Of a stretch of 54,846 bases of DNA, positions 1 through 51,831 are shown in pieces. The position numbers and the translations under genes are program-made. The DNA comes from a virus. Lineage: Duplodnaviria > Caudoviricetes. The notes beneath the pieces are model-generated. The model worked only from the letters and a program-made list of their open reading frames with translations, did not search any database and had not been told where the DNA came from. The first letter of the stretch is position 1. Every line of letters starts with the position of its first letter. The stretch covers positions 1 through 54,846 of IMG/VR virus record IMGVR_UViG_3300044667_000164. One strand, 5' to 3'.

Positions 1-255
1 CGGACCGTCATGGCGCACCGATCAAGATACGATCGAGCAAGCCATCCATCAGGTGACCGCCGCCGCTTACATCACAATTGTTGAGCGCAGACAGAAGCCA
101 ATGACTTTCCCCGTCTCCGACAGCGAGGAGGACGATCGCATTAAAGCATTTCTAGCCGCCATTGATGCCTTCACCGCCGGGGCGGATTCATAGCCTGCTG
201 CATGGTGCTGGTGATCTTGGTCGCCATCGCGGCCTATATGATAGGCTCGTGAGCC

Positions 256-561
256 ATGGAAGAACTGGCCCTGCGTCCGACCGAAATCAACGAGACACGC
301 TATAAGCACGACTATTGCGTTGTCTGGAAATCGGAAATCTATGGCGAGCGTCACGCCGGCCGAATCAGGCTGGCCACCGAGCGGGAATGGGCTGGCGAAG
401 TGTGGGAATTCAGCCTGCAGCCGATAATTGCCGTACCGGCCTACGGTAACGGCTCAGCCCCGACCTTGAAGGAAGCTCAGCAGAAGTTTCGCGCTGCCTT
501 TGAGCGGTTCTGCCGCGATGATGCGGGCGACCTCGGCAAGGCCTTCCCGCGCCGTGTCTGA
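256..561 (+). CDS. Hypothetical protein
   Basis: ATG ORF of 101 aa with protein-like composition, overlapping the next ORF. Confidence 0.6.
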   Translation: MEELALRPTEINETRYKHDYCVVWKSEIYGERHAGRIRLATEREWAGEVWEFSLQPIIAVPAYGNGSAPTLKEAQQKFRAAFERFCRDDAGDLGKAFPRRV

Positions 562-829
562 TAACTGGGACGCCACGTTCATCCCGGCCATTCCGCTGCC
601 CTCCGGAGGCCAGCTGGTGACGTTCCGCGACGCCGGCCACTACATCGACAAGCTTCCGAAACGCCATCAGGCGGACCCGCTCTGGCAGCGCGCGGTCAAG
701 GAATTGCTGTTGGCCGCAACCGATCAGGTCGCGTGGGAGTTCTTCGCCCGGCTCTCGATCATGAAGGCGCTGTATCGCGACAGGCCGGCGACTCCGGTGC
801 TGACGGTCAACAGAAGGCGACGCCGATGA
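554..829 (+). CDS. Conserved-looking alphaproteobacterial hypothetical protein
   Basis: GTG at 554 overlaps the previous stop; W..F..PIPLP.G..LVTFRDAG.YI..LP pattern recalled from Bradyrhizobium-like hypotheticals. Confidence 0.6.
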   Translation: MSDNWDATFIPAIPLPSGGQLVTFRDAGHYIDKLPKRHQADPLWQRAVKELLLAATDQVAWEFFARLSIMKALYRDRPATPVLTVNRRRRR

Positions 830-870
830 GCGATGATCGCGTCATCCGCCGACGCTCGGCGCCCCCCTGA

Positions 871-907
871 AACAAAAAAAGCCCCGCGAGAAAGCTCGCG
901 GGGCTTT
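871..907 (-). terminator. Rho-independent terminator (possibly bidirectional)
   Basis: Stem AAAGCCCCGCGAG (878-890), loop AAAG, CTCGCGGGGCTTT (895-907); U-tract on the minus strand. Confidence 0.85.
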
Positions 908-969
908 GAGTTGAGGGAGGAAACGCCCAAGGAGGGCAGCGATAGCGCGAAGCGCTACCGCCTCGTGTC
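871..969 (-). ncRNA. Probable alphaproteobacterial sRNA (BjrC1505-like), 3' part; 5' part lies at ~3519-3545 on the far side of the IS
   Basis: Minus strand reads GCGGTAGCGCTTCGCGCTATCGCTGCCCTCCTTGGGCGTTTCCTCCCT then the terminator: stem-loops with anti-SD-like CCUCC motifs. Family name is from memory. Confidence 0.55.
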
Positions 970-1009
970 GGGAATTATCACCTTGACGTAGTAGACTACA
1001 TTACGTAGT

Positions 1010-1966
1010 ATGCTTGACATGAGTGATCTTTCAAACCCAATTTTCCAAGACGAAACCAAAGCGCGCGAATGGCTTGAGGCGAGACTATGGTCCAACGGAC
1101 CGGTTTGCCCCAAGTGCGGCACCATCGGTGAGGCGACGCTTATGCTAGGCGCGTCGCACCGTCCCGGTCTGTACCAGTGCAATGCATGCCGCGAGCCGTT
1201 CACCGTAACGGTCAACACCTTGTACGAGCGCAGCCATGTGCCGCTCAACAAGTGGCTCGCCGCTACACATTTGATGATGGCCTCAAAGAAGGGAATTTCA
1301 GCCCTTCAAATTGGCCGCATGCTCGGGCTCTCGAAAAAGACTGCATGGTTCCTTTGCCATCGCATTCGCGAATCTCTCCGCGAGACGAATATTGAGCCGT
1401 TTGGCGGGAACGGAAAGACCGTTGAATTTGACGAAACCTTCATTGGCGGGAAGGAAAAGAACAAACACGCCGGCAAACGCAACAAGCGCAATATCGGCGG
1501 CGCTGGAAAAGAGGCTGTCTTTGCCTTAGTCGAGCGTGGCGGTCGCGTTCGCTCACATCATGTTCCAGATGTCTCGGCAAGAACGTTACGACCCATCTTA
1601 GAAGCTCAAATCAAGGATGAAACCAAGACGATGAGTGATGACGGCGGCGCACGCGTCGGCCATGGTCGTCCGCATCATCAATCGGTGAACCACAGCATTG
1701 GCGAATACGTTCGCGGCGACGCACATACAAATACGATTGAGGGCTATTTCTCAATCATGAAGCGCGGCATCATTGGAACGTATCACCACGTCAGCCAGCA
1801 ACACCTGAAGCGATATCTCGCGGAATTTGACTACAGATATAACGAACGCGAGGGACTTGGCGTTTCTGACGCGAAGCGAATGGAAAAATCCGTTCAGGGT
1901 ATCGTTGGAAAGCGAATGACGTATCGGGCCACTGGTCGCAGAGAAGAGGACCAAAATTTCGCGTAA
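1010..1966 (+). CDS. IS1595-family DDE transposase
   Basis: Zn ribbon CPKC...CNAC, HTH, DETFIGG, SDD, HTNTIEG, YLAEFDYRYN motifs. Confidence 0.95.
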   Translation: MLDMSDLSNPIFQDETKAREWLEARLWSNGPVCPKCGTIGEATLMLGASHRPGLYQCNACREPFTVTVNTLYERSHVPLNKWLAATHLMMASKKGISALQIGRMLGLSKKTAWFLCHRIRESLRETNIEPFGGNGKTVEFDETFIGGKEKNKHAGKRNKRNIGGAGKEAVFALVERGGRVRSHHVPDVSARTLRPILEAQIKDETKTMSDDGGARVGHGRPHHQSVNHSIGEYVRGDAHTNTIEGYFSIMKRGIIGTYHHVSQQHLKRYLAEFDYRYNEREGLGVSDAKRMEKSVQGIVGKRMTYRATGRREEDQNFA

Positions 1967-2010
1967 ATCATGGGGGCTCTGGAGCGATCCAGCGCAACTT
2001 CCGTTCTCGT

Positions 2011-2172
2011 TTATCGACGAGAACTGAGCGGTTTCTTTTTCTTGCGACGCGCCTTCGCTGGCGCTGGCTTGTTTGCCGAGCGCGTATGAAGAGCTACATC
2101 AACCGCGCGCTCAAATCGTTGCCAAGCGTCCGGTCGCTCATCATTTTCAATCTGTTGTTTCTTGGGGGGCAC
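2011..2172 (-). CDS. Small basic 53-aa protein inside the IS (not in ORF track)
   Basis: GTG..TAA: MPPKKQQIENDERPDAWQRFERAVDVALHTRSANKPAPAKARRKKKKPLSSRR; follows the 260-aa gene. Confidence 0.55.
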   Translation of the reverse strand: MPPKKQQIENDERPDAWQRFERAVDVALHTRSANKPAPAKARRKKKKPLSSRR

Positions 2173-2180
2173 GTCGCTTC

Positions 2181-2963
2181 CTAGTTTAGCACCGCTGTGC
2201 GGCCAAGCACTTCCCGTTCGATGCGCTGAATTGCTGCCTTCTGATCACCCTCAAATATAGGCATTGCAGTGAGCCTATTTGAAGCGCGCGTTCGCATTTT
2301 TTTGGAGACAGAACCGTCCTTCTCCAACAGAGCAATTACTGAGCAAGATAGATGGGCCTCATAAGAGAGCGCCATCTGCACGACTACAGCCTCAAGGACG
2401 CGCTGTTCCGACATTGCAAGGAACACGGCGACGGGCTCTCGCGAGCCGGATTGAATGATCATATCCGCTGGAAACTCGATACCTGGCGCTATCGTTTCGT
2501 TCTCACGAATGACGGCCCTCTTATCGAGTGCGGCATGGATGGCCTTCTTTGCATCTTCGCGGAAGGTGCTCGCGGCACGCTCAGGTGTCAAAAGGATGAG
2601 GTCTTGCAGGCGAAGCAAAAGTGCGACGAATTTGAGGGCCGCAGCAGGAATCTCGTCACTACTCAAGTGCAGCGTCGATAGCTCTCCGCTCTCGTCGTTA
2701 TATTGTGCGCCATACTCAGTCAGCAACGAGTTGAAGGCTTCTCGTCGGGTGTCTGTATCTAGGTCGATTCCCTCTGCTTCAATCGTCGGGATGGTGTTGC
2801 CGTCATCCTCGATGCGGTAACGACCAAGCGGATCGGGCCCGACGACGTAAAAGCCGACCGGCTCGCTATCCGAAAACGAAAATGAGGTGCTTGCCGCGAG
2901 GCCAGCAGGCACTTCGCGGACCTGAAGTTGATCGCAGAATGCTTTGCAGAGCTCTTGTTTCAA
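2181..2963 (-). CDS. DUF1828-like protein (IS passenger)
   Basis: F.FSDSEPVGFYV...YRIEDDG.T N-terminal pattern typical of DUF1828; C-terminal FPADMII may be restriction-nuclease-like. Confidence 0.7.
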   Translation of the reverse strand: MKQELCKAFCDQLQVREVPAGLAASTSFSFSDSEPVGFYVVGPDPLGRYRIEDDGNTIPTIEAEGIDLDTDTRREAFNSLLTEYGAQYNDESGELSTLHLSSDEIPAAALKFVALLLRLQDLILLTPERAASTFREDAKKAIHAALDKRAVIRENETIAPGIEFPADMIIQSGSREPVAVFLAMSEQRVLEAVVVQMALSYEAHLSCSVIALLEKDGSVSKKMRTRASNRLTAMPIFEGDQKAAIQRIEREVLGRTAVLN

Positions 2964-3460
2964 AACAGATTACCTTGACCACCTTCCGTCTTGTCCAGAC
3001 GGAAGAACTTTCTCGCGATGTCTAACGCGTCACCATCATTTGCCGCCCTGAAATCGCGACGGCGATGAGTCGTCCGCGGACTTGGGAAGCGCTTATGCAT
3101 GCCACCACGCATAGACCCGGCGGGCAGAGCATCAACGTCACCGCACCCGCCATGCTTATGCCAGCCGGGGTGCGTTCCGTGAAATTCCAATGATGCGATG
3201 ACTGTCATGTCACGATTCCGCTCGACTGCTAGCACGGCGGCGTACTGTTCTTTGGCAGCATTGTATCGAATCAAGACGCGGCACGTCTCCCCGAGAGCGG
3301 AGAATTGGATAACGCGCCATTTATACGCGGTACCGACGCGATAGGATCGGTTACGACGTTTTGATAGCGGGAATGCGCCCGGCGGCATGTTCCCCGTCTG
3401 CCACTTGCCCCAGTCCGAAACGACCTTGGCGGCCGAACGGATTTGCTGACCCCGCAACAT
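2960..3460 (-). CDS. Hypothetical protein (IS passenger) with EFHGTHPGWHKH motif
   Basis: 166-aa ORF with a 4-bp overlap into the DUF1828-like gene. Confidence 0.75.
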   Translation of the reverse strand: MLRGQQIRSAAKVVSDWGKWQTGNMPPGAFPLSKRRNRSYRVGTAYKWRVIQFSALGETCRVLIRYNAAKEQYAAVLAVERNRDMTVIASLEFHGTHPGWHKHGGCGDVDALPAGSMRGGMHKRFPSPRTTHRRRDFRAANDGDALDIARKFFRLDKTEGGQGNLF

Positions 3461-3568
3461 GGCATGATGCTACCATGGGTAGCCGGTACTACGTCAAGGT
3501 GATAATTCCCCTCGTGTCGGGGCTCGCGCCCCAACCTCGTCAGCCGGCGAGCCGGCCAATTGCTGGAT

Positions 3569-4003
3569 TCATGTTCCGGGCCCCGGCAGGAAGCAGGTGA
3601 TGTGGCCGTTCCAGATCCACACCATCGCAAAGCCGAGCCGGTTCGGTTCGGTGATGATCTTGTCGCGGTCGACCGTCATCCACACCCTGTCGATCCGCAC
3701 CGAATAAGAGCCATCGGCTTCGCCGCGCCAGTCGACGTCGTCGACCCTGTGGCCGTCGGCGTCTTCGCAGCAGCTCATGCCATTAGGCGCGCGCAAATGG
3801 CTCACCCACGCGCGGAGCGGTGACGCGGCGAAGCGGCCATCGACGTCATGCGCATTGGCCGCAAGCGCGACGAAGGTCGCAATGGCGGCGGCGAGCGCGA
3901 GCGGCAGCACGATCCGCCAGCGGACTTCAAGCACGACATAAAGGAGAAGCACCACGGCCGCATAGGCGCAGGCCGCGAAGCCGAGCAGCGCGATCCCCAT
4001 CAA
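3569..4003 (-). CDS. Membrane-anchored/exported Cys-containing phage protein
   Basis: Two N-terminal hydrophobic segments; SCC..ADG and C-terminal CFLPG. Confidence 0.7.
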   Translation of the reverse strand: MMGIALLGFAACAYAAVVLLLYVVLEVRWRIVLPLALAAAIATFVALAANAHDVDGRFAASPLRAWVSHLRAPNGMSCCEDADGHRVDDVDWRGEADGSYSVRIDRVWMTVDRDKIITEPNRLGFAMVWIWNGHITCFLPGPGT

Positions 4004-4010
4004 AAGCCTC

Positions 4011-4403
4011 TCAGCCGCCGAACTTGATCGAGATGAAATGCTGGACCAGCCAGGTCGCGCCGGTCTCGATCAGTTTGCCGATCGCGAGCAGCGCGATCAG
4101 CCCGATGCTCGCGAGCGCGGTCAGCCGCGCGCGCGAGCCGAGCGCGGCCGCGAGCTGTGGCTGCACCGACAACACGTGCGCGTCGAATTTCTTGATCAGC
4201 GCCTCGAGCGTCTTCGACAGATCGCCGATCGCGCGGCTGGTGGCATCGTTCTGCCTCTCGACCTGCCGGATCGCGCTCTGATTGTCGTCATGGCGCTTTT
4301 CCGACAGCCTGCGGTCTTCCTCGGCGCGGCGCTCCAGCGCCTTCACGCTGGTCTTGATCTCGCCGATCGTCAGACTGAGGTCGTCGATCTCGTGAGAGGG
4401 CAT
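4011..4403 (-). CDS. Coiled-coil protein with C-terminal TM helix (lysis module, holin/antiholin-like)
   Basis: Coiled-coil N-terminus, TM LTALASIGLIALLAIG; position in lysis module. Confidence 0.6.
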   Translation of the reverse strand: MPSHEIDDLSLTIGEIKTSVKALERRAEEDRRLSEKRHDDNQSAIRQVERQNDATSRAIGDLSKTLEALIKKFDAHVLSVQPQLAAALGSRARLTALASIGLIALLAIGKLIETGATWLVQHFISIKFGG

Positions 4404-4424
4404 GGCTGGCTCGCAACCTTGGAC

Positions 4425-4868
4425 CTAGCGATGAGGATAACGCTTGCGGTGACGATGATGATGCGATTTGACGCCGTGACGTCCGGCCCAGCCTCCAATC
4501 TGGAAATGCCCGCTGTCGCCATGACGCCATTGCGCGCCCGATACTGCCCCGCAGCCGTTCGCGATTGCGATCTCGTTCGCCGGCATCTTCGGCCGCGTCA
4601 CGTTGCGGGCGAGCTGGTTGATGTCGAGCGCGAGGCCCTTCGGATGCAGCGAATGCGGCACGCTGCCGTGCTTGCGGTAGCCGCCCATGAAACGAACGGA
4701 ATAGCCCTCGGCCTCGAGGCGATCGATCACGCACTGGAAGGCCGCGACCGCCGCATCAGCGACGTGCGCGATGGCGCCGGCGCGCGCACGGACGGTTCCC
4801 GCGCGAGCGCTCGCGGCGGGCGCGCCGAGCAGCACGCCCGCCAACACAAGACGCAGCAGCATTGCCAA
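4425..4868 (-). CDS. M15-family Zn metallopeptidase with signal peptide (peptidoglycan hydrolase)
   Basis: GGYR, SLHPKGLALDIN (SxHxxxxAxD) and DSGHFQ motifs; signal peptide. Confidence 0.8.
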   Translation of the reverse strand: MAMLLRLVLAGVLLGAPAASARAGTVRARAGAIAHVADAAVAAFQCVIDRLEAEGYSVRFMGGYRKHGSVPHSLHPKGLALDINQLARNVTRPKMPANEIAIANGCGAVSGAQWRHGDSGHFQIGGWAGRHGVKSHHHRHRKRYPHR

Positions 4869-5264
4869 TCAGCGATGATGCGTCAGGCGCTTCTTCGCGC
4901 TCAGCTGCAGCTGCGGCGTCACCATGTGGCCGGTGACCAGCACGCCGTTGACGTTGAGCGCCACCTCGCCGCCGACCTGATAGGTTGCCTTCAGGCCGGC
5001 CTGCTGGGCCTTGAGCGAGGCGCAGATCGAATCCGCTAGCTGCTTCGCCGTCGCCGCGATCGGCGCCGCCGTGGGCACTGCGGCGTTGGCGATCAGGGTG
5101 CCGATGGTTGCGACCGTCGGTTCGAACGCGCAGGTCGCGATCGCGTCCTGGATCACCTGGTCCTCGATCGCGGCGATCTTGTCCGGCGTCAGGCCGCCGA
5201 GTGTCGAGCAGCCGCCGAGCGCAACGCTTGCGAGACTGCACAGTGTAATGATCCACGTCCTCAT
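4869..5264 (-). CDS. Lipoprotein (possibly spanin-like)
   Basis: Lipobox LGGC after hydrophobic N-terminus. Confidence 0.7.
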   Translation of the reverse strand: MRTWIITLCSLASVALGGCSTLGGLTPDKIAAIEDQVIQDAIATCAFEPTVATIGTLIANAAVPTAAPIAATAKQLADSICASLKAQQAGLKATYQVGGEVALNVNGVLVTGHMVTPQLQLSAKKRLTHHR

Positions 5265-5266
5265 GG

Positions 5267-5464
5267 CTAACTTCCTTTCGTGTGCTGTTGGATGGAGGGA
5301 TCGGGATGCGGACTTGCGCCCAGGGCAGCGGCGAGCGCGGCGGTCACGACGCGTTCCAGCGCATCGTCCGGCACCATCGAGCCGTAGAACGGCGAATAGT
5401 CATTGATGGCCTTGCGCGCGGCCGCGCACGCGGCCGCGACCTGCGCCGCGGTTGGCGTCACCAT
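5267..5464 (-). CDS. Small hypothetical protein
   Basis: 65-aa ORF packed in the operon. Confidence 0.55.
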   Translation of the reverse strand: MVTPTAAQVAAACAAARKAINDYSPFYGSMVPDDALERVVTAALAAALGASPHPDPSIQQHTKGS

Positions 5465-5491
5465 GGAAGGCTCCTGATTTGATGGGGATTG

Positions 5492-6247
5492 TCAGTGCGA
5501 CAGGCTGTTGAGCGCCGCGCGCAACGCGGTCTCGTCAAAGCCTTCCGGCGAAAGCTTTTTCTCGTTCAGCACTTCGAGCGAGAGGTAGGCGCAGGCCTCG
5601 TCGCAAAACCGCTCGTAGAACGCAGGCGTCATCGCCTGCACTTCGCCCCAGGTCACAACCAGAAAGTGCCCGCAAGCATCGCGCCCGACGCAGGGCACGT
5701 AATGGCCGCCGGCGATCTGCGGGCGGGGCGGCACATCCCAGAGCTCGCCCTTGTCGAACGCCGCCATCGCCTGTTGCGGCAATTGCAAGCCGACGCCGCA
5801 GGCGCCGAACATCCAGCTGGCAAAGGCGAGCTGATCGACGTCGCCGATCTTCAGCGCGACATAGGCATCGATCCTGTGCCGGGCGCCGGTGGCATCGAGC
5901 ACGCCGGTCTTGCGGCGATAGCTCGCCGCCTCTTCCATGTCGGTGCCCTGATCGGTCGCAGGCTTCGCCGGATCGAACCCGGTGACCGCCGCGTAGTCCG
6001 ACAGCACGTCGTGGATCGTAAAACGCGCGCGCGGCTTGCCGCCTTCGAGCGACCACACCATGTGCTCGTGCGCGGCGCCGGCAAAGACGCAGTCGCCATA
6101 CTGGTCGTTCGCCAGCATGTGGAAGTTATCGACCGCCTGCCAGTGGCCGAACACGGCCGGCGGCGCCGGCAGCTTCTTCAGATCGAAGAAGTCACCGAAG
6201 CGAAAGGCGATCGCGTGGCGCGCGGGGCGCTTGCCGAGCTTCAGCAT
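5492..6247 (-). CDS. Papain-like cysteine peptidase
   Basis: NDQYGDCVFAG (catalytic Cys), GGHYVPCVG (His), VVTWG. Confidence 0.75.
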   Translation of the reverse strand: MLKLGKRPARHAIAFRFGDFFDLKKLPAPPAVFGHWQAVDNFHMLANDQYGDCVFAGAAHEHMVWSLEGGKPRARFTIHDVLSDYAAVTGFDPAKPATDQGTDMEEAASYRRKTGVLDATGARHRIDAYVALKIGDVDQLAFASWMFGACGVGLQLPQQAMAAFDKGELWDVPPRPQIAGGHYVPCVGRDACGHFLVVTWGEVQAMTPAFYERFCDEACAYLSLEVLNEKKLSPEGFDETALRAALNSLSH

Positions 6248-6439
6248 TCAAGCCTTCTTCACACCGGCGAGAATGCCGGCAACCAGCGTGCCGATCGAGC
6301 CGATCAGCGTCAGCACGGTCTGCGCCGTGGACGGGTCGTTGAGGAAGGTTTCGAGCGCGCCCTTGCCGAACGCGCCGGCAATGATCGCGGCGATCGACAA
6401 AAACGCGGTCACGGTACCGGGGGTCAGATATTTGGACAT
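6248..6439 (-). CDS. Putative holin (two TM helices)
   Basis: 63 aa, two hydrophobic helices, basic C-terminus, AGGAGG RBS, near endolysin. Confidence 0.6.
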   Translation of the reverse strand: MSKYLTPGTVTAFLSIAAIIAGAFGKGALETFLNDPSTAQTVLTLIGSIGTLVAGILAGVKKA

Positions 6440-6466
6440 GGTGGCCTCCTTTTGAAATCGTGACTT

Positions 6467-6703
6467 TCACAAGCCGAAGCGCGCCAGCGCGCCGAACACG
6501 AACAGCAGCGCCAACCCGCCGACGAGGACGCTGATGACAATCGCGGTCGCGATCATGAATTGCCGGTCGGCACGCTGTCGCTTTGCCCGCGCCTCGGCCT
6601 CGCACGGCGCTTCGCCGCAGCCTTCATAGAGGCACTGCGTGCGATAGAACTCCTTGTGCGGATTGCGGCAGTGCTCGCACCTGTGCATGATCGATCGGGC
6701 CAT
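6467..6703 (-). CDS. Small Cys-rich membrane protein
   Basis: CEHC...C...C...C plus C-terminal TM helix. Confidence 0.5.
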   Translation of the reverse strand: MARSIMHRCEHCRNPHKEFYRTQCLYEGCGEAPCEAEARAKRQRADRQFMIATAIVISVLVGGLALLFVFGALARFGL

Positions 6704-6746
6704 TGTTGTTCAGGCCTCCGCGACCGCACAGTCTTTCGATTGCGGG

Positions 6747-7340
6747 CTACGCGACGGGCTTGGGGCCTGCGCCAATTGGCGCAGGCGCAGCGCCAAAACC
6801 CCGCGCCATGATCAGCTGCACGTCATGGCGGAATTGATCCATGTCGAATGACGGATCATCTTTGCGGCCCTTCGGCAGCGCGTATTCCTTGTGGCCTGCA
6901 CACATCACGGGCGGTGCGCCGATGTGAGCCAGCAGCGCCGCGCAGCCGCGCTTGTAGGAGTCCATCTGCACGCCCGGCCACGGATCGGTGGCATCGCCGA
7001 CGTTCTCGGCCTCGATCCCGATCAGATGCGCGTTGCCGTCGGTGACGCCATGCCAGTTGCCTTTTCCGGCATGCCAGGCCTTTCCCGCGGCGACCACCCA
7101 CCACACCCCGGAACGCGCCAGCGCGAGGTTGCAGAGCGGACCCTTCAGGTCCGGCCGGCCATCGACCAGCACATGCAGGTCGCGGATATCTCCATCGCGC
7201 GGCCCGCAGGTGTGATGACAGAGCACGCCGAGCGGCTTGCCGACATCGCCATGGCCGCGGGTCTGCCAACCGTCGACCGCCTGCACCGCGAGACCGGCGG
7301 CGCGGAGCACGTCGGGAAGAAAGCTCAGGGCATAGGACAT
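6747..7340 (-). CDS. N-acetylmuramoyl-L-alanine amidase (Amidase_2) endolysin
   Basis: VLCHHT, AWHAG, IGIEAEN, GHKE, KDDP motifs. Confidence 0.92.
   Translation of the reverse strand: MSYALSFLPDVLRAAGLAVQAVDGWQTRGHGDVGKPLGVLCHHTCGPRDGDIRDLHVLVDGRPDLKGPLCNLALARSGVWWVVAAGKAWHAGKGNWHGVTDGNAHLIGIEAENVGDATDPWPGVQMDSYKRGCAALLAHIGAPPVMCAGHKEYALPKGRKDDPSFDMDQFRHDVQLIMARGFGAAPAPIGAGPKPVA
6765..6786. repeat. 22-bp perfect palindrome GCCTGCGCCAATTGGCGCAGGC, copy 1
   Basis: Identical copies at 23436-23457 and 44392-44413. Confidence 0.95.
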
Positions 7341-7425
7341 AAGGCGCTCCGCCGCGCAGTTTGTGACAGTTTACCCGGGAGAGTTGCGGTGATAGCTTTT
7401 CGCCCTCTTTGGGGATGTCACCGCC

Positions 7426-8925
7426 TTGATCCTCGACCACCTTGACTGGCGACCGTGGCCGAAAGAGCCGGACACCTGGCTCTACGCGGACATTGCGGAT
7501 GTCGCGCGGCTGGCAAAACATCTGCCGACGGATCGCTTCTGGGTCCGCGAGCTTGACGGTGAGGGATGGGGCGGCTGGCATTTCACCGGCCGACGGGAGG
7601 ACGAATTGCTGGATGTGCTGCAGAAGATATTGAACGGCCGATCGATGCCGGCGTGGCTCAGGTTGCGGGAGGCCGTCGCCACCCAGCCGGAGCCTGAAGT
7701 GATCAAGGAATGCCACCGCAAGGATATCGATAAGGCCTTTCCCAACGATGCCTGGCAGCGCAACTACGCGCTGAACTGGTGGGAAGCGACCCACAAGCTC
7801 GACAAGCTCGAATCCTATCCGTGGCGCGTCACCTTGCCGATCGCCGACCTCTGCAACGCGCGCTGCACGTTCTGCACCTCGTGGCTGTCGGGTCGCAATG
7901 TCATGTCGCCCGATCAACTTGACCGCTATCTCGAGGTGCTGCCGTTCGCTCGAGAGATCGGCATCCAGGGCCACGGCGAGCCCCTCGCGAACCCGCACAT
8001 CGACACGATCCTAGCGAAGATCGGTGAAGCCACCGATCCGCGCGCTGAAAGCTACATCATCACCAACGGCGCGTTCTTTCCGAGGCGCATCGACGCACTC
8101 CTCAAGGCACGCGTGAAGACGTTCAACTTCAGCCTCAACGCCACGACACCCGACGTCCACAACACCGTGATGGGCCTCGGCCCCGATGCGCTCTCGAAAA
8201 TCATCGACGGCATCAAGGACATCATCGCGATCAGAGACTCGGGTCGAGAAAACCGACCGATCCTCGTCACGATCTCGATGGTGCTGAACGCCGACAATAT
8301 CCATCAGGCGGCTGACTTCGTCCGCCTCGGCAATGATCTCGGCGTCACGCGCGTCTATCTCCGCACGCTGATGCCCGTGCCGGGTCCGGTCAGCGGCTTG
8401 AACTATCACCGGCTCTCCCCTTGCCTGCATCCGGAATTCGAGCGCCACGCGGCGGAGGCTCGCGCGGCCATTGCAGCATCAAAAGTCGAGGTCGAGGCCT
8501 TCCCCGAGACGTGGGCGCACGATGCCTTTCCTCCCTCGCAACGCACCTCTGATCTGAGAGTGACGCCGCGCGAGACCGCGCTCGCCGATCCGGACCTGCG
8601 GCAGACCTACAAGGATTTCCGTGCCGCGCTGTCCGGTCATGGCCGCCGGCTGCGGCCATCGGCGCCCGATGGAGAAAGCCCGTATGGACGCAAGGCGCCA
8701 TTTGACTGCAACTTCATCTACCAGCAGCTGATCTCGACCCAGCTGTCGTTCCGCCTCGTGCCATGCTGTTACATGAGCGATGTGCCCGATCATGAACCGC
8801 TGGTCTTTGACGGCACTCGCCCGTTCAGGGACTACTGGAATTCGGAAGCCATGATGAACCTGCGCAGGACTTTGCGTGAGGGGCCGCTCTACAACGAATG
8901 CCGCACCTGCCCGATGCAGGGCTAG
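7426..8925 (+). CDS. Radical SAM protein with C-terminal SPASM/twitch-like domain
   Basis: CNARCTFC (CxxxCxxC), GHGEPL, ITNG; C-terminal C...PCC...WNS...R...CRTC. Confidence 0.9.
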   Translation: MILDHLDWRPWPKEPDTWLYADIADVARLAKHLPTDRFWVRELDGEGWGGWHFTGRREDELLDVLQKILNGRSMPAWLRLREAVATQPEPEVIKECHRKDIDKAFPNDAWQRNYALNWWEATHKLDKLESYPWRVTLPIADLCNARCTFCTSWLSGRNVMSPDQLDRYLEVLPFAREIGIQGHGEPLANPHIDTILAKIGEATDPRAESYIITNGAFFPRRIDALLKARVKTFNFSLNATTPDVHNTVMGLGPDALSKIIDGIKDIIAIRDSGRENRPILVTISMVLNADNIHQAADFVRLGNDLGVTRVYLRTLMPVPGPVSGLNYHRLSPCLHPEFERHAAEARAAIAASKVEVEAFPETWAHDAFPPSQRTSDLRVTPRETALADPDLRQTYKDFRAALSGHGRRLRPSAPDGESPYGRKAPFDCNFIYQQLISTQLSFRLVPCCYMSDVPDHEPLVFDGTRPFRDYWNSEAMMNLRRTLREGPLYNECRTCPMQG

Positions 8926-9353
8926 CTGACCGGCACCATCCAGCCGTGCAGCGCCGCAATCATGTTTTGGTCTTCGTTCGACTGATTGATGAAAGTGCCG
9001 TCGATTACAAAGCCGGCGGGCAGGATGATCGGCGTCACGAAATGCCGCACCGGGCAGTGCTCCGGCAGCGTGTCGATCGAGTTGAATACCGCATAGGACG
9101 AGCGCAGCGCGTTGCCGGCATCGCGGATACACTTCGACTGAAACACCATGTCGGTGACATAGCACCAGAAGCCCTGCGGGACCGTGACCGGGAAATTCCA
9201 CGACGAGGCCGAAGGCGACAGCGCTGACGCGCCGCCGCCCTGGCTGAACGGCACTTCGCCCGGATTGCCGGCGTTGTTGGCGCGACCAACGACGGACTGC
9301 CAGCACGCGATCCGGAAATGGTAGGCGCCTGCAGGCGGCGGTTGCGTGAACAT
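8922..9353 (-). CDS. Hypothetical protein downstream of the tail fibre
   Basis: 143-aa ORF 12 bp after the fibre gene, converging on the rSAM gene. Confidence 0.7.
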   Translation of the reverse strand: MFTQPPPAGAYHFRIACWQSVVGRANNAGNPGEVPFSQGGGASALSPSASSWNFPVTVPQGFWCYVTDMVFQSKCIRDAGNALRSSYAVFNSIDTLPEHCPVRHFVTPIILPAGFVIDGTFINQSNEDQNMIAALHGWMVPVS

Positions 9354-46641: not shown

Positions 46642-47937
46642 TTATTCCGCCGCCTCGACTTGATCGATCGACAATTCCTGCTGTTTGGTCAGCCGCGCCT
46701 CGTTGCCCCAGCCCTTCCAGTCACCGGGCAGTTCACCGCGGGGAAACAGTTCGACCTTGGGCAGGTCCGGGTAATAGGCGCTGATCAGCTCGCGGAAATA
46801 GGCGGGCTTCGCCGAGTGCGCGGTGCGCGCTTCGGCATGGACCGAGGCTTTCAGCACCGACGGGTCGGGCGCGACCATCTTGCCGCGTGTCGCGATCAAC
46901 AGCGGTTCGTGCTGATTCCTGTTCCAGAACCCGGTGCCCTGGTGCTGCTTGTCCCAGCAGAATTCGGAGACATAGGTGAAGCCGTAGGCCTCGATCAGCC
47001 GCAGGGTTTTGACGAGCCACGGCACCGTGGTCCAGATGAACAGCACCGCATCGTCAGTCGCGAGCTCACCGACCGGGAGCTTGGCGAGCTCCTCTTCCGT
47101 CATCGTCGGATAATGGTTTTCCGTCGAGCGGTCGGAATCGCCGGCATCGAACTTGGTCGGCGGGTCCATGTAGATCACTGGGAACCTGGTCGCGGTCGAC
47201 AGCTCGGTGTTGCCGGCCGCCTGCTTCTTCAGCTTCTCGACGCGCTCCGCGCGCCGCTGTTCGTTCTTCTCCTTCCGGATCGCCTTCGCCTTGGCGAGGA
47301 TCTCGGCCTCGCTCATCGCCGCGACGCCCTTTTGCTCCTCGGCCGGCAACGCCTCGGCAATCTCAGCCGCGGTCGAGACCGCGACCTTGCCCGCTTCCAC
47401 GGCCGCCTTCAGTTCCGGAGCCGCCTTGTCTTCCACGACGGCCGCCCGCTGCACGCTGCGGCGCCCGACGTTGAGCACGTCAGCGGCTTCCGACTGCGAC
47501 ACCAGCGGCTCGGGTTGTGCGACCACTGCGGCGCCTTCGCCCGAGCCGAGCGGCAGCGGTGGCGCGTCCACGGCCGCAGCCTTGCTGAACTGGTTGTCGC
47601 CGATGCGCAGCGTCGCGAGCTTCGCTGCGACCATCGCGCGCTGGCTCTCGGTCAGATGCCGGCGTCGCAGGTTCTTCGCGATCACATAGGCCAGCGCCTC
47701 GCGATCGGTGCCGGCGAAGACCTCGACCCGCACGCCGAGCCCGCGCTTGATGCAGGCCGTGTAGCGGTTGCGACCGTCGAGGACCATCTCGCGGTGCAGC
47801 TTGACGGTCTCGACCTGACCGTTCTGTTCGATGTCGCCGCCGAGCTCAGCGAGCTCCGCCTCGCCCAGCATCGGAAACAGGTTCGCGAGCGGATGGAATT
47901 TCAACGGCGCGTGGCCGGGGCTAAGAACGTCACTCAT
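46642..47937 (-). CDS. ParB-like N-terminal domain fused to MT-A70 adenine methyltransferase
   Basis: HPLANLFP, LDGRNRY.AC, NL.RRHL.ESQR; VIYMDPPT, HYPTM, LFIWT, HSAKP, VELF.R, WGNE. Confidence 0.9.
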   Translation of the reverse strand: MSDVLSPGHAPLKFHPLANLFPMLGEAELAELGGDIEQNGQVETVKLHREMVLDGRNRYTACIKRGLGVRVEVFAGTDREALAYVIAKNLRRRHLTESQRAMVAAKLATLRIGDNQFSKAAAVDAPPLPLGSGEGAAVVAQPEPLVSQSEAADVLNVGRRSVQRAAVVEDKAAPELKAAVEAGKVAVSTAAEIAEALPAEEQKGVAAMSEAEILAKAKAIRKEKNEQRRAERVEKLKKQAAGNTELSTATRFPVIYMDPPTKFDAGDSDRSTENHYPTMTEEELAKLPVGELATDDAVLFIWTTVPWLVKTLRLIEAYGFTYVSEFCWDKQHQGTGFWNRNQHEPLLIATRGKMVAPDPSVLKASVHAEARTAHSAKPAYFRELISAYYPDLPKVELFPRGELPGDWKGWGNEARLTKQQELSIDQVEAAE

Positions 47938-48875: not shown

Positions 48876-49175
48876 CTAACGCAACAGAACGCGGGTGATG
48901 CTCAGCTTGGATTTTCCGGCCCGCTTGCCGCGGATCTCATTGATGATGACGAGGATGGCGTCGAAGGACGGCTCGCGCGCCCCTGAAAGCCAGAACTTGG
49001 CCGCGCGCTCGGACACCGCGCAGCGATACGCGAGCTCTGCGGCGGTTTTCTTCGGCCACAGGGCACGCGCGACAACAGCGAAGCGGTTTTCAGAATCGAG
49101 GGAACAACTAGGAACACCTGTTCCCGCGTTGGCTTTTGACGGCGCGGCAAGCGTTCGCTCTGATTCCCCCGCCAT
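48876..49175 (-). CDS. HTH regulator in cII-like position
   Basis: LWPKKTAAELA....VSERAAKFWLSG.REPS. Confidence 0.75.
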   Translation of the reverse strand: MAGESERTLAAPSKANAGTGVPSCSLDSENRFAVVARALWPKKTAAELAYRCAVSERAAKFWLSGAREPSFDAILVIINEIRGKRAGKSKLSITRVLLR

Positions 49176-49219
49176 GACGCAACTCCAACTGACGCAACTC
49201 CAACTGACGCAACTCCAAC
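49175..49219. repeat. Perfect 3 x 15-bp tandem repeat TGACGCAACTCCAAC
   Basis: Copies at 49175, 49190 and 49205. Confidence 0.95.
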
Positions 49220-49342
49220 GAGTCTACGCGACGAACGCAACTGAAGCGCGCCGCTCGCGCGCCGCTGACGAAATGCCTTGCGCACAACCCGCACTTGCGT
49301 GTGTAATCCACCCGTACTCGCGTGAAAGTTTGGGGCTGGGGC

Positions 49343-49600
49343 ATGCGTGGAATTCAGGAGGTGACCCCGATCCTCGATACCTACTGCTCGGGGCTGGGAG
49401 CAATCGAGGATCTGGGTACGACGGTGCGCTTCTATCTTTACGTTCTGCAGGTGTCGGACGCAGGCGTGCAGGAGCGCATCCTGGTCGACAAGATCGTGAT
49501 GCCGAAATCGGCGGTGCCGGATGCCATCCTGCAGGCGATCGCAGCGATCGGCGGCGAGGTCGGCCATGTGCTGACGCTGGCAGGCGAGCTCGTGCATTAG
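49343..49600 (+). CDS. Hypothetical protein
   Basis: 85 aa with protein-like composition, converging on cro. Confidence 0.6.
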   Translation: MRGIQEVTPILDTYCSGLGAIEDLGTTVRFYLYVLQVSDAGVQERILVDKIVMPKSAVPDAILQAIAAIGGEVGHVLTLAGELVH

Positions 49601-49610
49601 GCCCTCTCGC

Positions 49611-49838
49611 TCATCGCACCGCCTCGGTCTCGCGGGCATCATGGTCGGGACCGATCGATAGAAAATCGTTGGCTGTGACAGCACCGCCGGTCTCGCGGAT
49701 GATCGCTTCGGCGACGCGCGGCCGCGGGCAGTATTTGCCCTTGCAGTAATCGGTCACGACGGACGGCTGAACGCCAATGCGCTTGGCGAACTCGAACTTC
49801 CGCATCTTCGTCAGCTTCAACCAGTCTTCGAGCTTCAT
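49611..49838 (-). CDS. Cro-like HTH repressor
   Basis: MKLEDWL.....FAKRIGV..S.V..Y..G...P....I...TGGAVTANDF. Confidence 0.88.
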   Translation of the reverse strand: MKLEDWLKLTKMRKFEFAKRIGVQPSVVTDYCKGKYCPRPRVAEAIIRETGGAVTANDFLSIGPDHDARETEAVR

Positions 49839-49934
49839 CGCGCCCGAATCATTAGCATGAGCGAAATTTCGGTTCAAACGAATATTCAGACTGACGGGCT
49901 TCCGCATGCGGTTCCGCTCCGTAGAATCGCAGCC

Positions 49935-50291
49935 ATGGCGAAGCGTGGACCGCACAAGCCGCGAGCAAAAAAGCCGCCGGCCCAATGGAATAAGAACTTC
50001 ATCAAGGAGTGGCGGATCTTCCGCGGCCTGACTGTGGAACAACTCGCCGAAGCCGCCGCAATGTCCACAGGCAATCTCTCGGCGCTCGAAAATCAGCGGC
50101 AGGGTCACAGCACCCAGGGGCTCGCCAAACTCGCCAAAGCGCTGCGGACCGAGCCCGACAAGCTGCTTCGAATCAACCCGATGGCCGACGACGAGACCGG
50201 CGATTTCTGGTCGCTCTGGGAAATCGCCACCCCGCAGGACCGCGAGACGCTGCGAATCATGGCCGGCCGCCTCGTCGGCACCAAAAAGTGA
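49935..50291 (+). CDS. CI-like XRE repressor (no peptidase S24 domain)
   Basis: FIKEWR..RGLTVEQLAE...MS.GNLS.LEN.R; divergent from cro. Confidence 0.88.
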   Translation: MAKRGPHKPRAKKPPAQWNKNFIKEWRIFRGLTVEQLAEAAAMSTGNLSALENQRQGHSTQGLAKLAKALRTEPDKLLRINPMADDETGDFWSLWEIATPQDRETLRIMAGRLVGTKK

Positions 50292-50644
50292 GACAAGGCG
50301 CTGTCATCGCGCTTTTGACCGCGTGTGCGCTGGTGACCGGGCGCCCGGCACCGGCCCAGATCCCGCCCTCCCCGCTCTACCGCATGACGGCTCGCCTGCC
50401 GGTCTGCCGCAACGCGGCTGACCTTGAACGGTTGCTGACCTATGTCGCCGATCGCGATGTGACGGCCTACAGCAACGCGCTTTTGCCGCTGCTGCTCGCG
50501 CACCAGTGCCGGATGCTCGACAAGGGCCAGGACCTCCATGTCGATCGCGAGGGCGCAGGCGGGGTGCGCTGCGTCCGGATTCAAGGCGAAGCCGACTGCT
50601 GGTGGAGCACAGGGTCCGCGCTCGAAGCCGCCCCCGTTCACTAA
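50288..50644 (+). CDS. Exported Cys-containing protein coupled to the repressor
   Basis: GTGA overlap; signal peptide; four Cys in the mature part. Confidence 0.65.
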   Translation: MRQGAVIALLTACALVTGRPAPAQIPPSPLYRMTARLPVCRNAADLERLLTYVADRDVTAYSNALLPLLLAHQCRMLDKGQDLHVDREGAGGVRCVRIQGEADCWWSTGSALEAAPVH

Positions 50645-50678
50645 CCATCCCCGCCCATCCTGCTGAGACATCGACAGT

Positions 50679-50764
50679 TTCGGCAAAACCGAAAATATTT
50701 TCGGCTTCGCTGGCTTTTCGGTTGTACCGAATATTTGGTTGTGCTAGTGATTGGTTCATCCGAA
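50679..50764. promoter_or_regulatory. Repressor operators TTCGG-N5-CCGAA at a pL-like promoter (further copy at 49868-49882)
   Basis: Exact at 50679 and 50717; variants at 50750 and 49868. Confidence 0.75.
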
Positions 50765-50777
50765 CAAGGAGGCCAGC

Positions 50778-51831
50778 ATGACCTACGATGAAGCCAAGGC
50801 CACCCGCGACCAGATCGAGGCCGAGGTCGTCCGGCTCGCCCGCGTGCTCGGCGCCTTCCCGCGGACCGCGCTCGGCCTCACCCCGGATCACATCAAGGCC
50901 AGCGTCGAGTACCGAACGGCCAAGGCCGCGTTCGATGCCGCGTTCCACCGCCAGCGCGTGTTCAACTTCGCCTTCGTCAAAACCTTCAAACGCGAGATCG
51001 CGGCCGAACGCCGCGCCCGCCGCTTCGCCTGACTGCAATCCCGTCCACCGTCGCCAACGGAGACCACCATGACCGCAACCGTCGCCCAGACCCGCCCCAA
51101 CAACCCGTTCGAGATCGCCCGCCGCAACCTGATCGACTCCTTGAGCACCATGGCGGTGCCGCTGCCGATCGCGAATTTCCCGTATGCGGAAGATTTCGAG
51201 GCGGTCGCCGATCACCTGCGCCAGGCCGCCGCAATTTTCGATGCGTGGCTTCAGGACATCGGCGCCCAGGTCAAGATGAACGCGCCGTGCCGGATCGACG
51301 ACGGTCAGTTCGACTGCGCGTTTTCCGGCGCGATCGCCGGCAACGCCACGTTCGAGACCCAGCGCTGCGCCGAGATCATCCGCGACGAACAACAAGCGAT
51401 GGGGTTCCTGCCGTGATCGCCGCGTTCGGACTCGGACTGATCACCGGTGCCGCGCTTGCGACCTCGATGATTGTCGCCGCCTTGCTGCTGGTCCGCGCCT
51501 ATCGCCGGCAGCATCCGTTCATCCTCGACCTTCCGCATGAGGGCCGGTCATGATCCTCGACATCTCCCACAACGCCACCATGATCCACGGCGCGGTCACG
51601 AGCCTCAACCTCGACCTGTTCGCGCGCGGCATGTTCATCGACCGCCTGCAGGTCGCCGCCGACCGCGGCATGCTGATCGCGCCGGACGGCGCGATCGCCC
51701 GCCAGCTTGCCGACGACGTCAAGACCTTGCGCTTTCTCGCGCTGCAGCTCGAGCAGCGCAGGGCCGCCTTGATCGACAATGCCACCCCGCGCTTTCAGTC
51801 CATTCCTTCGCCAAGGGCGAACGCGCGCTAA
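50778..51831 (+). other. Four small early genes (50778-51032, 51069-51416, 51413-51553, 51550-51831)
   Basis: AAGGAGG RBS before the first; stop/start overlaps. Confidence 0.65.

Follow-up and report, generated by a model that had tools for sequence, protein, structure and literature searches.

An IS1595-family element in a soil phage carries a divergent relative of the candidate system PDC-M24, possibly a conflict module

Insertion sequences (IS) of the IS1595 family that carry passenger genes, among them ISNwi1 and the 'ISNwi1+' group of ISfinder, were reportedly described by Siguier, Gagnevin and Chandler in 2009. Passenger genes of this kind are known from ISfinder, and the gene pair PDC-M24 is a candidate of PADLOC. 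In phage lambda, the order cI-rexA-rexB places exclusion genes that are expressed in lysogeny behind the repressor gene. Toxin-antitoxin (TA) pairs occur within Tn3-family transposons, near the transposition functions, and are proposed to stabilise the element (Lima-Mendez et al. 2020, PMC7157771). The HipAD/DS-6 system (DefensePredictor) combines a HipA-like kinase with a DUF3037-DUF1829 partner and gave protection against phages in experiments (PMC13092281). The DNA analysed here, an IMG/VR virus record of 54,846 bp (the window, taken at its full length), represents a tailed, myovirus-like soil phage and bears at positions 970-3510 a 2,541-bp IS1595-family insertion with three cargo genes, A, B and C. 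We tentatively favour the reading that A and B form a divergent, PDC-M24-like conflict module, for exclusion or addiction and spread by transposition, in which B would be a DNA-directed effector gated by A.

The insertion has perfect 24-nt terminal inverted repeats (TIRs), which start with GGGAATTAT, and an 8-bp target duplication. This agrees with the ISNwi1 type of IS1595 elements, the end consensus of that group in ISfinder being GGnnATTAT. Its transposase belongs to the IS1595 family (NF033547 at 8.7e-55 and 185.9 bits, the cut-off being 75) and features the DDE_Tnp_IS1595 domain (PF12762, 4.3e-35) behind an N-terminal Zn_ribbon_IS1595 (PF12760, 1.6e-9). With DDE domain and zinc ribbon, short GGnnATTAT-type TIRs, an 8-bp duplication and extra genes inside its ends, the element resembles the known IS1595 elements with passenger genes. 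Its GC content is 54.5%, compared to 65% in the window, and the GC content at third codon positions (GC3) is 0.59-0.61 in its genes and about 0.8-0.9 in the phage genes. Since the composition is foreign and both the ends and the duplication are intact, the data point to a recent insertion of an intact ISNwi1-type element at an intergenic spot of a myovirus-like phage. The cargo consists of three minus-strand genes that are convergent with the transposase gene, and the TTG start of B overlaps the TGA stop of A in the letters TTGA (4 bp, minus strand). A first-pass annotation of the window had described three minus-strand genes within the TIRs, antisense to the transposase and with this overlap, and had regarded them as IS1595 cargo. 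Open reading frames (ORFs), TIRs and overlap are indeed as described, and the genes lie inside an intact element with perfect TIRs, the 8-bp duplication and an IS1595 transposase. The features of the element are:

962-969, no strand: target-site duplication CTCGTGTC, left copy, from sequence reading; within the 12-nt direct repeat D10 (961-972 / 3510-3521)
970-993, plus strand: left TIR GGGAATTATCACCTTGACGTAGTA, inverted-repeat pair I1, 24 nt, 100% complementary; holds a -35-like TTGACG
1010-1966, plus strand: IS1595-family DDE transposase, 318 aa (Pfam PF12762 and PF12760, NCBIfam NF033547)
1967-2010, no strand: gap between the convergent transcription units; small inverted repeat I21 at 2000-2010 / 2017-2027
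2011-2172, minus strand: gene C, 53-aa basic protein (isoelectric point, pI, 11.3), GTG start, from the ORF list; motif RPDAWxRFExAVD
2181-2963, minus strand: gene B, 260-aa acidic protein, TTG start; N-terminal DUF1828, C-terminal divergent DUF1829 with a restriction-endonuclease-like fold
2960-3460, minus strand: gene A, 166-aa basic protein, ATG start, from the ORF list; beta-rich, with an E92/H94/H101/H103 cluster
3461-3497, minus strand: putative A-B-C promoter, from sequence reading
3487-3510, minus strand: right TIR, inverted-repeat pair I1
3511-3518, no strand: target-site duplication CTCGTGTC, right copy, from sequence reading; direct repeat D10

The two larger cargo genes occur together almost throughout. 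B lies directly downstream of A, on the same strand, in all 24 loci that were found with A in 185,579 species genomes. Among 89 loci found with B (9 viral and 80 metagenomic; the metagenome loci are partly near-copies, and 92 of 106 B sequences are distinct), a match to A stands upstream in 77 of the 80 that have at least 150 nt of upstream sequence. The exceptions are a 167-aa ORF with an A-like ...RIEDQ...GLHVHAHC pattern, which falls under the threshold used for the hidden Markov model (L032), a truncated B behind an ORF that is RusA-like by eye only (L036), and a locus with just 255 nt upstream, in which there is no ORF of at least 70 aa (L088). The divergence of A correlates with that of B (Mantel r=0.63 over 18 non-redundant loci with all three proteins, a value reached by 0 of 2000 permutations).

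A and B are also predicted to bind each other. In models of the complex, the interface score ipSAE reached 0.74 (0.73, 0.76 and 0.74 in the runs) versus 0.24 for the best control; of 80 solved complexes 58 attained the mark applied to this score, and of 110 mismatched pairs 2 did so, counts that hold only roughly because our own alignments were used. The runs agree in at least 77% of their contacts, and the predicted local distance difference test (pLDDT) of the partners is at least 79. The predicted interface joins residues 14-94 of B (DUF1828) to residues 32-46, 67-72, 94-98 and 116-129 of A, and includes invariant positions of both proteins (V18, G37, F38, Y39 and G55 in B; L32, H94-H97 and R124 in A). 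As it comprises A 94-98, the His loop of A lies within the predicted interface. Small overlapping genes with complex-forming products, as in type II TA pairs, are found here, the complex by prediction only.

A has no match in Pfam, NCBIfam, PHROGs or PADLOC (in PADLOC none at E<=1), and a structure search with its model gave no clear match to any solved structure. A search of 90% clusters returned 52 relatives at E<=0.001, and a profile of 26 relatives matched 281 representatives drawn from 50% clusters, 209 with E<=1e-10. The 26 close members show no variation at E92, H94, G95, T96, H97, G99, W100, H101 and C106. Across 91 diverse members H101 never varies, and K12, W20, F30, W48, E92, H94, G99, H103, G115 and R124 are conserved in at least 90%. 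Because the cluster residues are kept in both sets, the motif EFHGTHPGWHKH (A residues 92-103) is the core of a conserved E-x-H ... H-x-H cluster. The AlphaFold2 (AF2) model (pLDDT 86.9, predicted template modelling score 0.84) consists of a beta meander and one C-terminal helix, with the His cluster on a hairpin between strands 84-93 and 100-105. The pI of A is 10.7, and the median of its family (A1) is 10.2. If the conflict reading holds, A would represent a new family with a conserved Glu/His site of metal type and without a solved fold.

A was also considered as an HUH endonuclease on account of H101-x-H103. Four weak matches to PF23343 lie near this motif (E 0.016-0.047, below the cut-off), the best 50 structural matches include no Rep or relaxase, and the HUH reading was dropped because the family has no conserved Tyr. 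The NUMOD4 motif is known from homing endonucleases. One metagenome protein of 208 aa (P0201, a single cluster representative) possesses such a motif (1.3e-8) ahead of an A domain whose alignment begins at profile position 17, the first 16 positions being absent. The fusion may be genuine or stem from gene calling, and it gives a hint, and only a hint, of an action of A on DNA.

B has 328 relatives and matches phrog_5059 over its whole length. Residues 26-118 are a DUF1828 domain (Pfam, 9.8e-14), and no match was obtained for the C-terminal half to Pfam DUF1829 or for B to NCBIfam; the pI is 4.2 in the N domain and 8.9 in the C domain. The C-terminal half has the alpha-beta-beta-beta-alpha-beta core of the restriction-endonuclease-like, PD-(D/E)xK fold. 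Conserved polar residues of this domain in 38 sequences are D167, E191, E/D214, N229 and R230 (38 each), E/D186 (37), R/K188 (36) and K/R215 (36). The invariant D167, the only one of them that aligns with a conserved residue of canonical DUF1829, lies at the start of strand 2; strand 3 (178-183) contains neither an acidic residue nor a Lys, and E/D186-x-R/K188 and E191 stand at the start of the helix that follows it. At fold level the domain is restriction-endonuclease-like, its catalytic motif is non-canonical, and any nuclease activity is putative. Compared to the PD-(D/E)xK domains of Can2/Card1-type effectors and of the Pyrococcus abyssi repair endonuclease 2vld, B differs in having no CARF or SAVED domain, no sequence similarity (none in the search of the PDB) and no canonical (D/E)xK on strand 3.

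The third gene, C, occurs in a subset of the loci, mostly in IS-borne ones. An iterated profile over the small ORFs after B recovered 21 C ORFs, that of the window and 20 further relatives, all directly after B, with the common motif RPDAWxRFExAVD and a Lys/Arg-rich tail; C has no family match above the cut-off in Pfam, PADLOC, NCBIfam or PHROGs. The claims of the first-pass annotation for the three proteins can be judged accordingly. The DUF1828-like N-terminus of the 260-aa protein is confirmed. Its supposed restriction-fold C-terminus stands at fold level, but the canonical (D/E)xK is absent from strand 3. The His motif, taken for a metal or nuclease site, is part of a conserved Glu/His cluster, and a nuclease role for it is conjectural; and the small basic third protein represents a real family, but one limited to part of the loci.

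The only PADLOC match of B is PDC-M24B (PDLC04539), at 4e-13 and restricted to residues 39-143. The lead to the content of PDC-M24 was a resemblance of A to DUF6978 in the ESM-Atlas: a search with PF22398 in 301 genomes, the class of one A-bearing genome, found matches in 6, 5 of them above the cut-off. In four of these five DUF6978 loci the overlapping next gene encodes a protein of 252-261 aa, which the B profile matches at 2e-9 to 2e-12. The four DUF6978 proteins match PDC-M24A at 1.5e-57 to 6.7e-44, and their partners, composed of DUF1828 and DUF1829, match PDC-M24B at 1.6e-102 to 1.9e-96; PDC-M24 is therefore a DUF6978 gene followed by a DUF1828-DUF1829 gene. Aligned with hhalign, the B family and the DUF1828-DUF1829 partners gave a probability of 96.5% (E 7.2e-10) over 215 columns that span the DUF1829 part, and B is therefore a full-length, divergent PDC-M24B. 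The gene order is likewise that of PDC-M24: A and B are adjacent on the same strand, with the small protein before the large one.

Canonical and divergent pairs share the overlap of two genes, the small first protein and the second protein of about 255 aa, and A and DUF6978 share size, position and a local D/E-F-x-G...H...HxH pattern. However, A is strongly basic, with a median pI of 10.2 in its family against 5.8 in DUF6978 (n=17); the A-B subfamily often includes the third gene C; and the second half of canonical B proteins matches Pfam DUF1829, which that of the window's B does not. The settings differ as well: A-B is found on IS1595 elements or after phage repressors, in contrast to the five canonical loci, which lie by restriction-modification (R-M) genes, an integrase or a Mu F-like gene (an MmeI-type methylase in L122, a type I S subunit in L123, Mu F/PBECR2 in L121, an integrase in L124). 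The fifth, L120:1928-3249 in a Rhodospirillaceae metagenome-assembled genome (MAG), is a canonical pair beside PDC-S67 (1.6e-68) and a type I R-M specificity subunit, a small defence cluster.

Whether A itself is a DUF6978 protein was considered on the basis of its size, its position in the pair and its likeness in the ESM-Atlas. By features (0.90-0.91; cosine 0.91), 26 of its 30 matches fall in DUF6978-labelled clusters, by structure it reaches template modelling scores of 0.57/0.60 to a cluster with 12% DUF6978-carrying members, and a short motif alignment places its E92, H97 and H101-x-H103 on D, H and H-x-H. Yet A fails every statistical sequence test for DUF6978, and we do not assign it to that family; a kinship below sequence detection may exist, as these model-based likenesses suggest. 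Literature searches, which covered papers outside their supplementary tables, returned no paper treating PDC-M24, DUF1828/DUF6978 pairs or this IS1595 cargo. What appears to be new is a divergent branch of PDC-M24 in which the first protein is unrecognised and a third gene is frequent, and which is recurrently borne by ISNwi1-type elements, has a putative TIR-embedded promoter, outlives its transposase and is also present in phage immunity regions.

The putative cargo promoter consists of TTGACG at 3497-3492 (within the TIR), a 19-nt spacer, TG at 3475-3474 and TAGCAT at 3472-3467, with 6 nt from TAGCAT to the ATG of A (3460). In 12 aligned loci, some of them without a transposase, conservation extends from the TTGAC of the TIR through a TGGTA block about 19 nt away until a few bases before A; we therefore infer the TIR as the source of the promoter of the cargo operon, with a very short leader. 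A promoter scan with spacers of 16-18 nt only gave no site at the right end, where the spacer is 19 nt. Judged by its sequence, the cargo promoter is probably embedded in the TIR. At the opposite end, a promoter-like TTGACG-17-TAGTAT at 983-1011, found by the promoter scan, overlaps the first ATG of the transposase ORF (1010). The true start of the transposase may be the ATG at 1019, with a leaderless or near-leaderless transcript that mirrors the layout of the cargo end.

A convergent IS1595 transposase gene follows B at a distance of up to 3.5 kb in 9 of 22 loci found with A and 22 of 42 loci found with B, in total 31 of 64, where only loci with at least 1.5 kb of downstream sequence were taken as informative. 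The layout of the IS-borne loci is constant (TIR, A, B, in some C, antisense transposase, other TIR), with an ISNwi1-type end (ATTATCACCTTGAC or ATTATATACTTGAC) 40-170 nt upstream of A and its complement beyond the transposase. The transposase-less loci L029, L037, L038, L039, L073 and L005 retain the upstream IS end with 0-2 mismatches. In Mantel tests, r is 0.22 between B and the transposase (50 of 2000 permutations as high) and 0.03 between A and the transposase (803 of 2000). L022, L025, L068 and L079 have transposases with about 70% identity to that of the window, but their A and B proteins are only 28-40% and 43-45% identical to its own; the closest B, that of L037 (85%), belongs to a locus without a transposase. 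When 92 B sequences were placed on a quick maximum-likelihood tree, the label 'transposase present' required 28 changes versus a shuffled mean of 27.8, and is therefore not clustered at all. By these comparisons cargo and transposase are not co-inherited, and the simplest reading is that transposases were repeatedly lost or exchanged around a lasting A-B core. The neighbours of the genome copies without a transposase are mostly housekeeping genes (tRNA synthetase, anthranilate synthase, glutamine synthetase, cytochrome bd, mraZ/mraW), and a few copies are in mobile contexts (an integrase and Zot; an integrase, an excisionase-like helix-turn-helix protein and DUF5906). The distribution of A-B is patchy, with one copy in each of 3 genomes searched, and a tblastn search with A against 72,556 plasmid records gave no match.

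A second, older setting is that of the clade which branches deepest in the B tree (L027, L116, L032, L034 and L035) and in which there is no IS. On the viral contigs L032, L034 and L035, A-B directly follows a gene for a protein of about 230-245 aa. This protein matches the C-terminal domains of LexA and lambda CI in L034 (E 8e-4 to 9e-3) and an annotated S24 repressor in L035 (E 0.003). The corresponding ORF of L032 gave no PDB match and no BLASTP similarity to an annotated repressor; as an S24 repressor it would rest on a GDSM-type motif seen by eye, and we do not count it as one. In the cultured, temperate Rhizobium phage RHph_N28_2 (L126, MN988516.1, 42323-44358), an S24 peptidase/repressor gene is followed by an A homologue (hhalign probability 100, E 5e-40; 'hypothetical' in GenBank) that has a 4-bp overlap with the gene of a 'DUF1828 domain-containing protein'. 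The position of deep-clade A-B directly downstream of a CI/LexA-like repressor gene, on the same strand, resembles that of rexAB behind lambda cI. RexAB, however, bears no sequence relation to A-B, and the A-B of the window is IS-borne and lies outside any immunity region. By this analogy the order repressor-A-B is the best contextual sign of phage exclusion, and gives a hint in that direction.

If our preferred reading is correct, the A-B-C operon would be transcribed inward from a promoter partly within the right TIR, A and B would work as one unit, the acidic DUF1828 domain of B would dock on the basic A across its conserved His loop, and B would be a DNA-directed effector, either a nuclease or a DNA clamp, whose activity is presumably gated by A. 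The module would exclude incoming phages or mobile DNA, or punish the loss of the element, and in either case the fact that A-B outlives its transposase would be explained. The first-pass annotation had likewise proposed a two-component defence or TA module spread by transposition. This is borne out in part, by the co-occurrence of the homologues (B after A in 24 of 24, A before B in 77 of 80), the predicted binding, the PDC-M24B homology and the fact that about half of the informative loci are IS-borne; an anti-phage or TA activity is conjectural, and A has no family in PADLOC, Pfam, NCBIfam or PHROGs. As to the enrichment in defence islands that it named as a check, the neighbours of the transposase-less genome copies examined are mostly housekeeping genes and do not form defence islands.

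Several observations weigh against a PDC-M24-like conflict module. Any activity of A-B is conjectural, PDC-M24 is itself only a candidate system in PADLOC-DB 2.0.0, and the complex of A and B reflects the confidence of a model and no measurement. A is not demonstrably kin to the first protein of PDC-M24: none of 91 members of the A family matches any PADLOC model, PDC-M24A included, at E<=0.01, DUF6978 (PF22398) in Pfam gave no match for A, for 26 A1 members or for 40 distant members, and hhalign probabilities of the A family against PDC-M24A/DUF6978 are 0.8 and 1.4. Because the neighbours of the transposase-less copies are mostly housekeeping genes, the subfamily has no defence-island signal. 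In addition, A diverges faster than B (37% and 45% identity, respectively, between L022 and the window), and the basic charge of A fits an exchange of the roles equally well.

In such an exchange A would be a basic, metal-dependent effector on nucleic acids and B its neutraliser, with DUF1828 capping the His cluster and the DUF1829-like part binding DNA only, for autoregulation or tethering. We regard this as somewhat unlikely, and it is nearly as well supported as the gating of B by A. The conservation of A in its 91 diverse members, with H101 invariant, has the look of an active or metal site, A 94-98 falls within the predicted interface, which joins a protein of pI 10.7 to an N domain of pI 4.2, NUMOD4 stands ahead of the A domain in P0201, and the catalytic motif of B is non-canonical and not common to canonical DUF1829; the DUF1829 protein of DS-6 is modelled as an antitoxin-like DNA binder (PMC13092281). 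However, the fold of A matches no solved enzyme and A has no family, NUMOD4 is fused to A in just one cluster representative, where gene calling could be at fault, and B is the more conserved partner; moreover, there would be no explanation for D167 and E191, which are invariant in the family and lie in a nuclease-like fold. A role in the maintenance or transposition of the IS, in which A-B, with or without C, acts on the element's own DNA or on the donor or target site (in strand processing, control of transposition or retention of the element, for instance) and not on phages, is decidedly improbable. It is supported by the fixed arrangement with a convergent transposase in 31 of 64 informative loci, by a cargo promoter that shares the TIR with the transposase-binding end, by the small, basic, mostly IS-borne C and by the argument that TA pairs of the Tn3 family are part of the transposition module (PMC7157771). 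Yet cargo and transposase show no co-divergence (r 0.22 for B and 0.03 for A), intact pairs without a transposase are common and scattered over the B tree, phage immunity regions house a deep clade that has no IS, and none of the 5 loci seen with canonical PDC-M24 relatives is IS-borne.

It is also improbable, to our mind, that A-B has a cellular role outside conflict, for instance in DNA repair or regulation, or travels along as a neutral passenger, with neither toxicity nor addiction nor exclusion: its distribution is patchy and single-copy, the pair is mobile and recurs on IS elements and phages, and it is a tight, overlapping gene pair with kin in a defence-island candidate. There is also a bolder reading, which we consider quite unlikely: A-B-C would be a dedicated retention module of ISNwi1-type elements, expressed from the transposase-bound TIR, in which A, as a new metal-binding fold, gates or is gated by DUF1828-DUF1829, and a DNA-directed weapon would enforce the persistence of the element in hosts and phages. 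This would be a protein-based counterpart of the role proposed for TA pairs in Tn3 transposons. The likeness is a small two-gene module of conflict type inside a transposon; the differences are another transposon family, unrelated proteins and a promoter that overlaps the TIR, and TA activity of A-B is a candidate property. HipAD/DS-6 is alike in its second gene, which combines a partner-binding N-terminal domain with a DUF1829-type domain and is proposed to bind the first protein and DNA. It differs in its first protein, a kinase as opposed to the His-cluster beta protein A, and in an N-terminal DUF3037 in place of the DUF1828 of B; protection by A-B is likewise a candidate property.

If the conflict reading is true, a 2.5-kb transposon routinely ships a two-protein conflict module among alpha-, beta- and gammaproteobacterial genomes and phages, and the module survives the decay of the transposase. 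Insertion sequences would then join the known vehicles of defence or addiction systems, and the PDC-M24 candidate would gain a second, divergent branch with a different first protein. The order repressor-A-B in a cultured temperate Rhizobium phage would offer a tractable system for exclusion.

Some related loci have additional features. In L025 (5923-10204), a related IS1595 element carries A, B, a C-like ORF and a 593-aa N6_N4 DNA methyltransferase (7362-9143), which lies on the cargo strand between C and the transposase, within the TIRs. The A-B of Nevskia soli (L023) is without IS1595 ends and is flanked by inverted repeats of about 80 nt in four blocks (5785-5865, 7326-7411), possibly another kind of mobile or recombination structure. 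A mazE/mazF (PemK) pair is found just outside an A-B-carrying IS1595 element in a sponge-associated Rhodospirillaceae MAG (L009:5376-5965). In L107 (5992-8077), the A-B-C cargo is followed by matches to IS1595 transposases at two places, one on either strand, which suggests nested or tandem elements.

The phage nature of the window is apparent from PHROG matches to terminase large subunit, portal, tail sheath, tape measure, baseplate, endolysin, replication initiator and helicase. The element has inserted between genes, where it adjoins a strong hairpin at 878-907 (inverted-repeat pair I4) and is flanked by an ORF of no assigned function (500-829) and the lysis end of the phage (endolysin at 6747-7340). 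A terminator scan of the gap at 1967-2010 gave no terminator-like site, and a plus-strand site at 2049-2064 falls within gene C. An exact search of viral contigs for an empty site, with a 35-nt pattern of the left flank, gave no match. When contigs of four sequencing runs were compared with positions 1-7000, none joined 969 to 3519, the joints listed having sides of just 21-25 letters, and one contig of 22,552 nt in each of the runs X1 and X2, both possible sources of the window, covered 914-7000 with 0 differences. A second stretch of low GC3 (0.58-0.69) lies at 48902-51395 and comprises an HTH_3 protein (49611-50108) and two family-less ORFs (260 and 363 aa). Unrelated to A-B, this stretch is perhaps a further island of foreign or regulatory genes. 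A second A-B-like pair, formed by ORFs at 48902-49684 (260 aa) and at 49611-50108 (165 aa), was considered and rejected: the likeness is one of size only, the 165-aa protein being HTH_3 and the 260-aa protein family-less. At 46642-47937, a 431-aa phage protein matches a DNA methyltransferase (phrog_359, 2.7e-54) and a ParB-like protein (phrog_4715, 6.8e-19).

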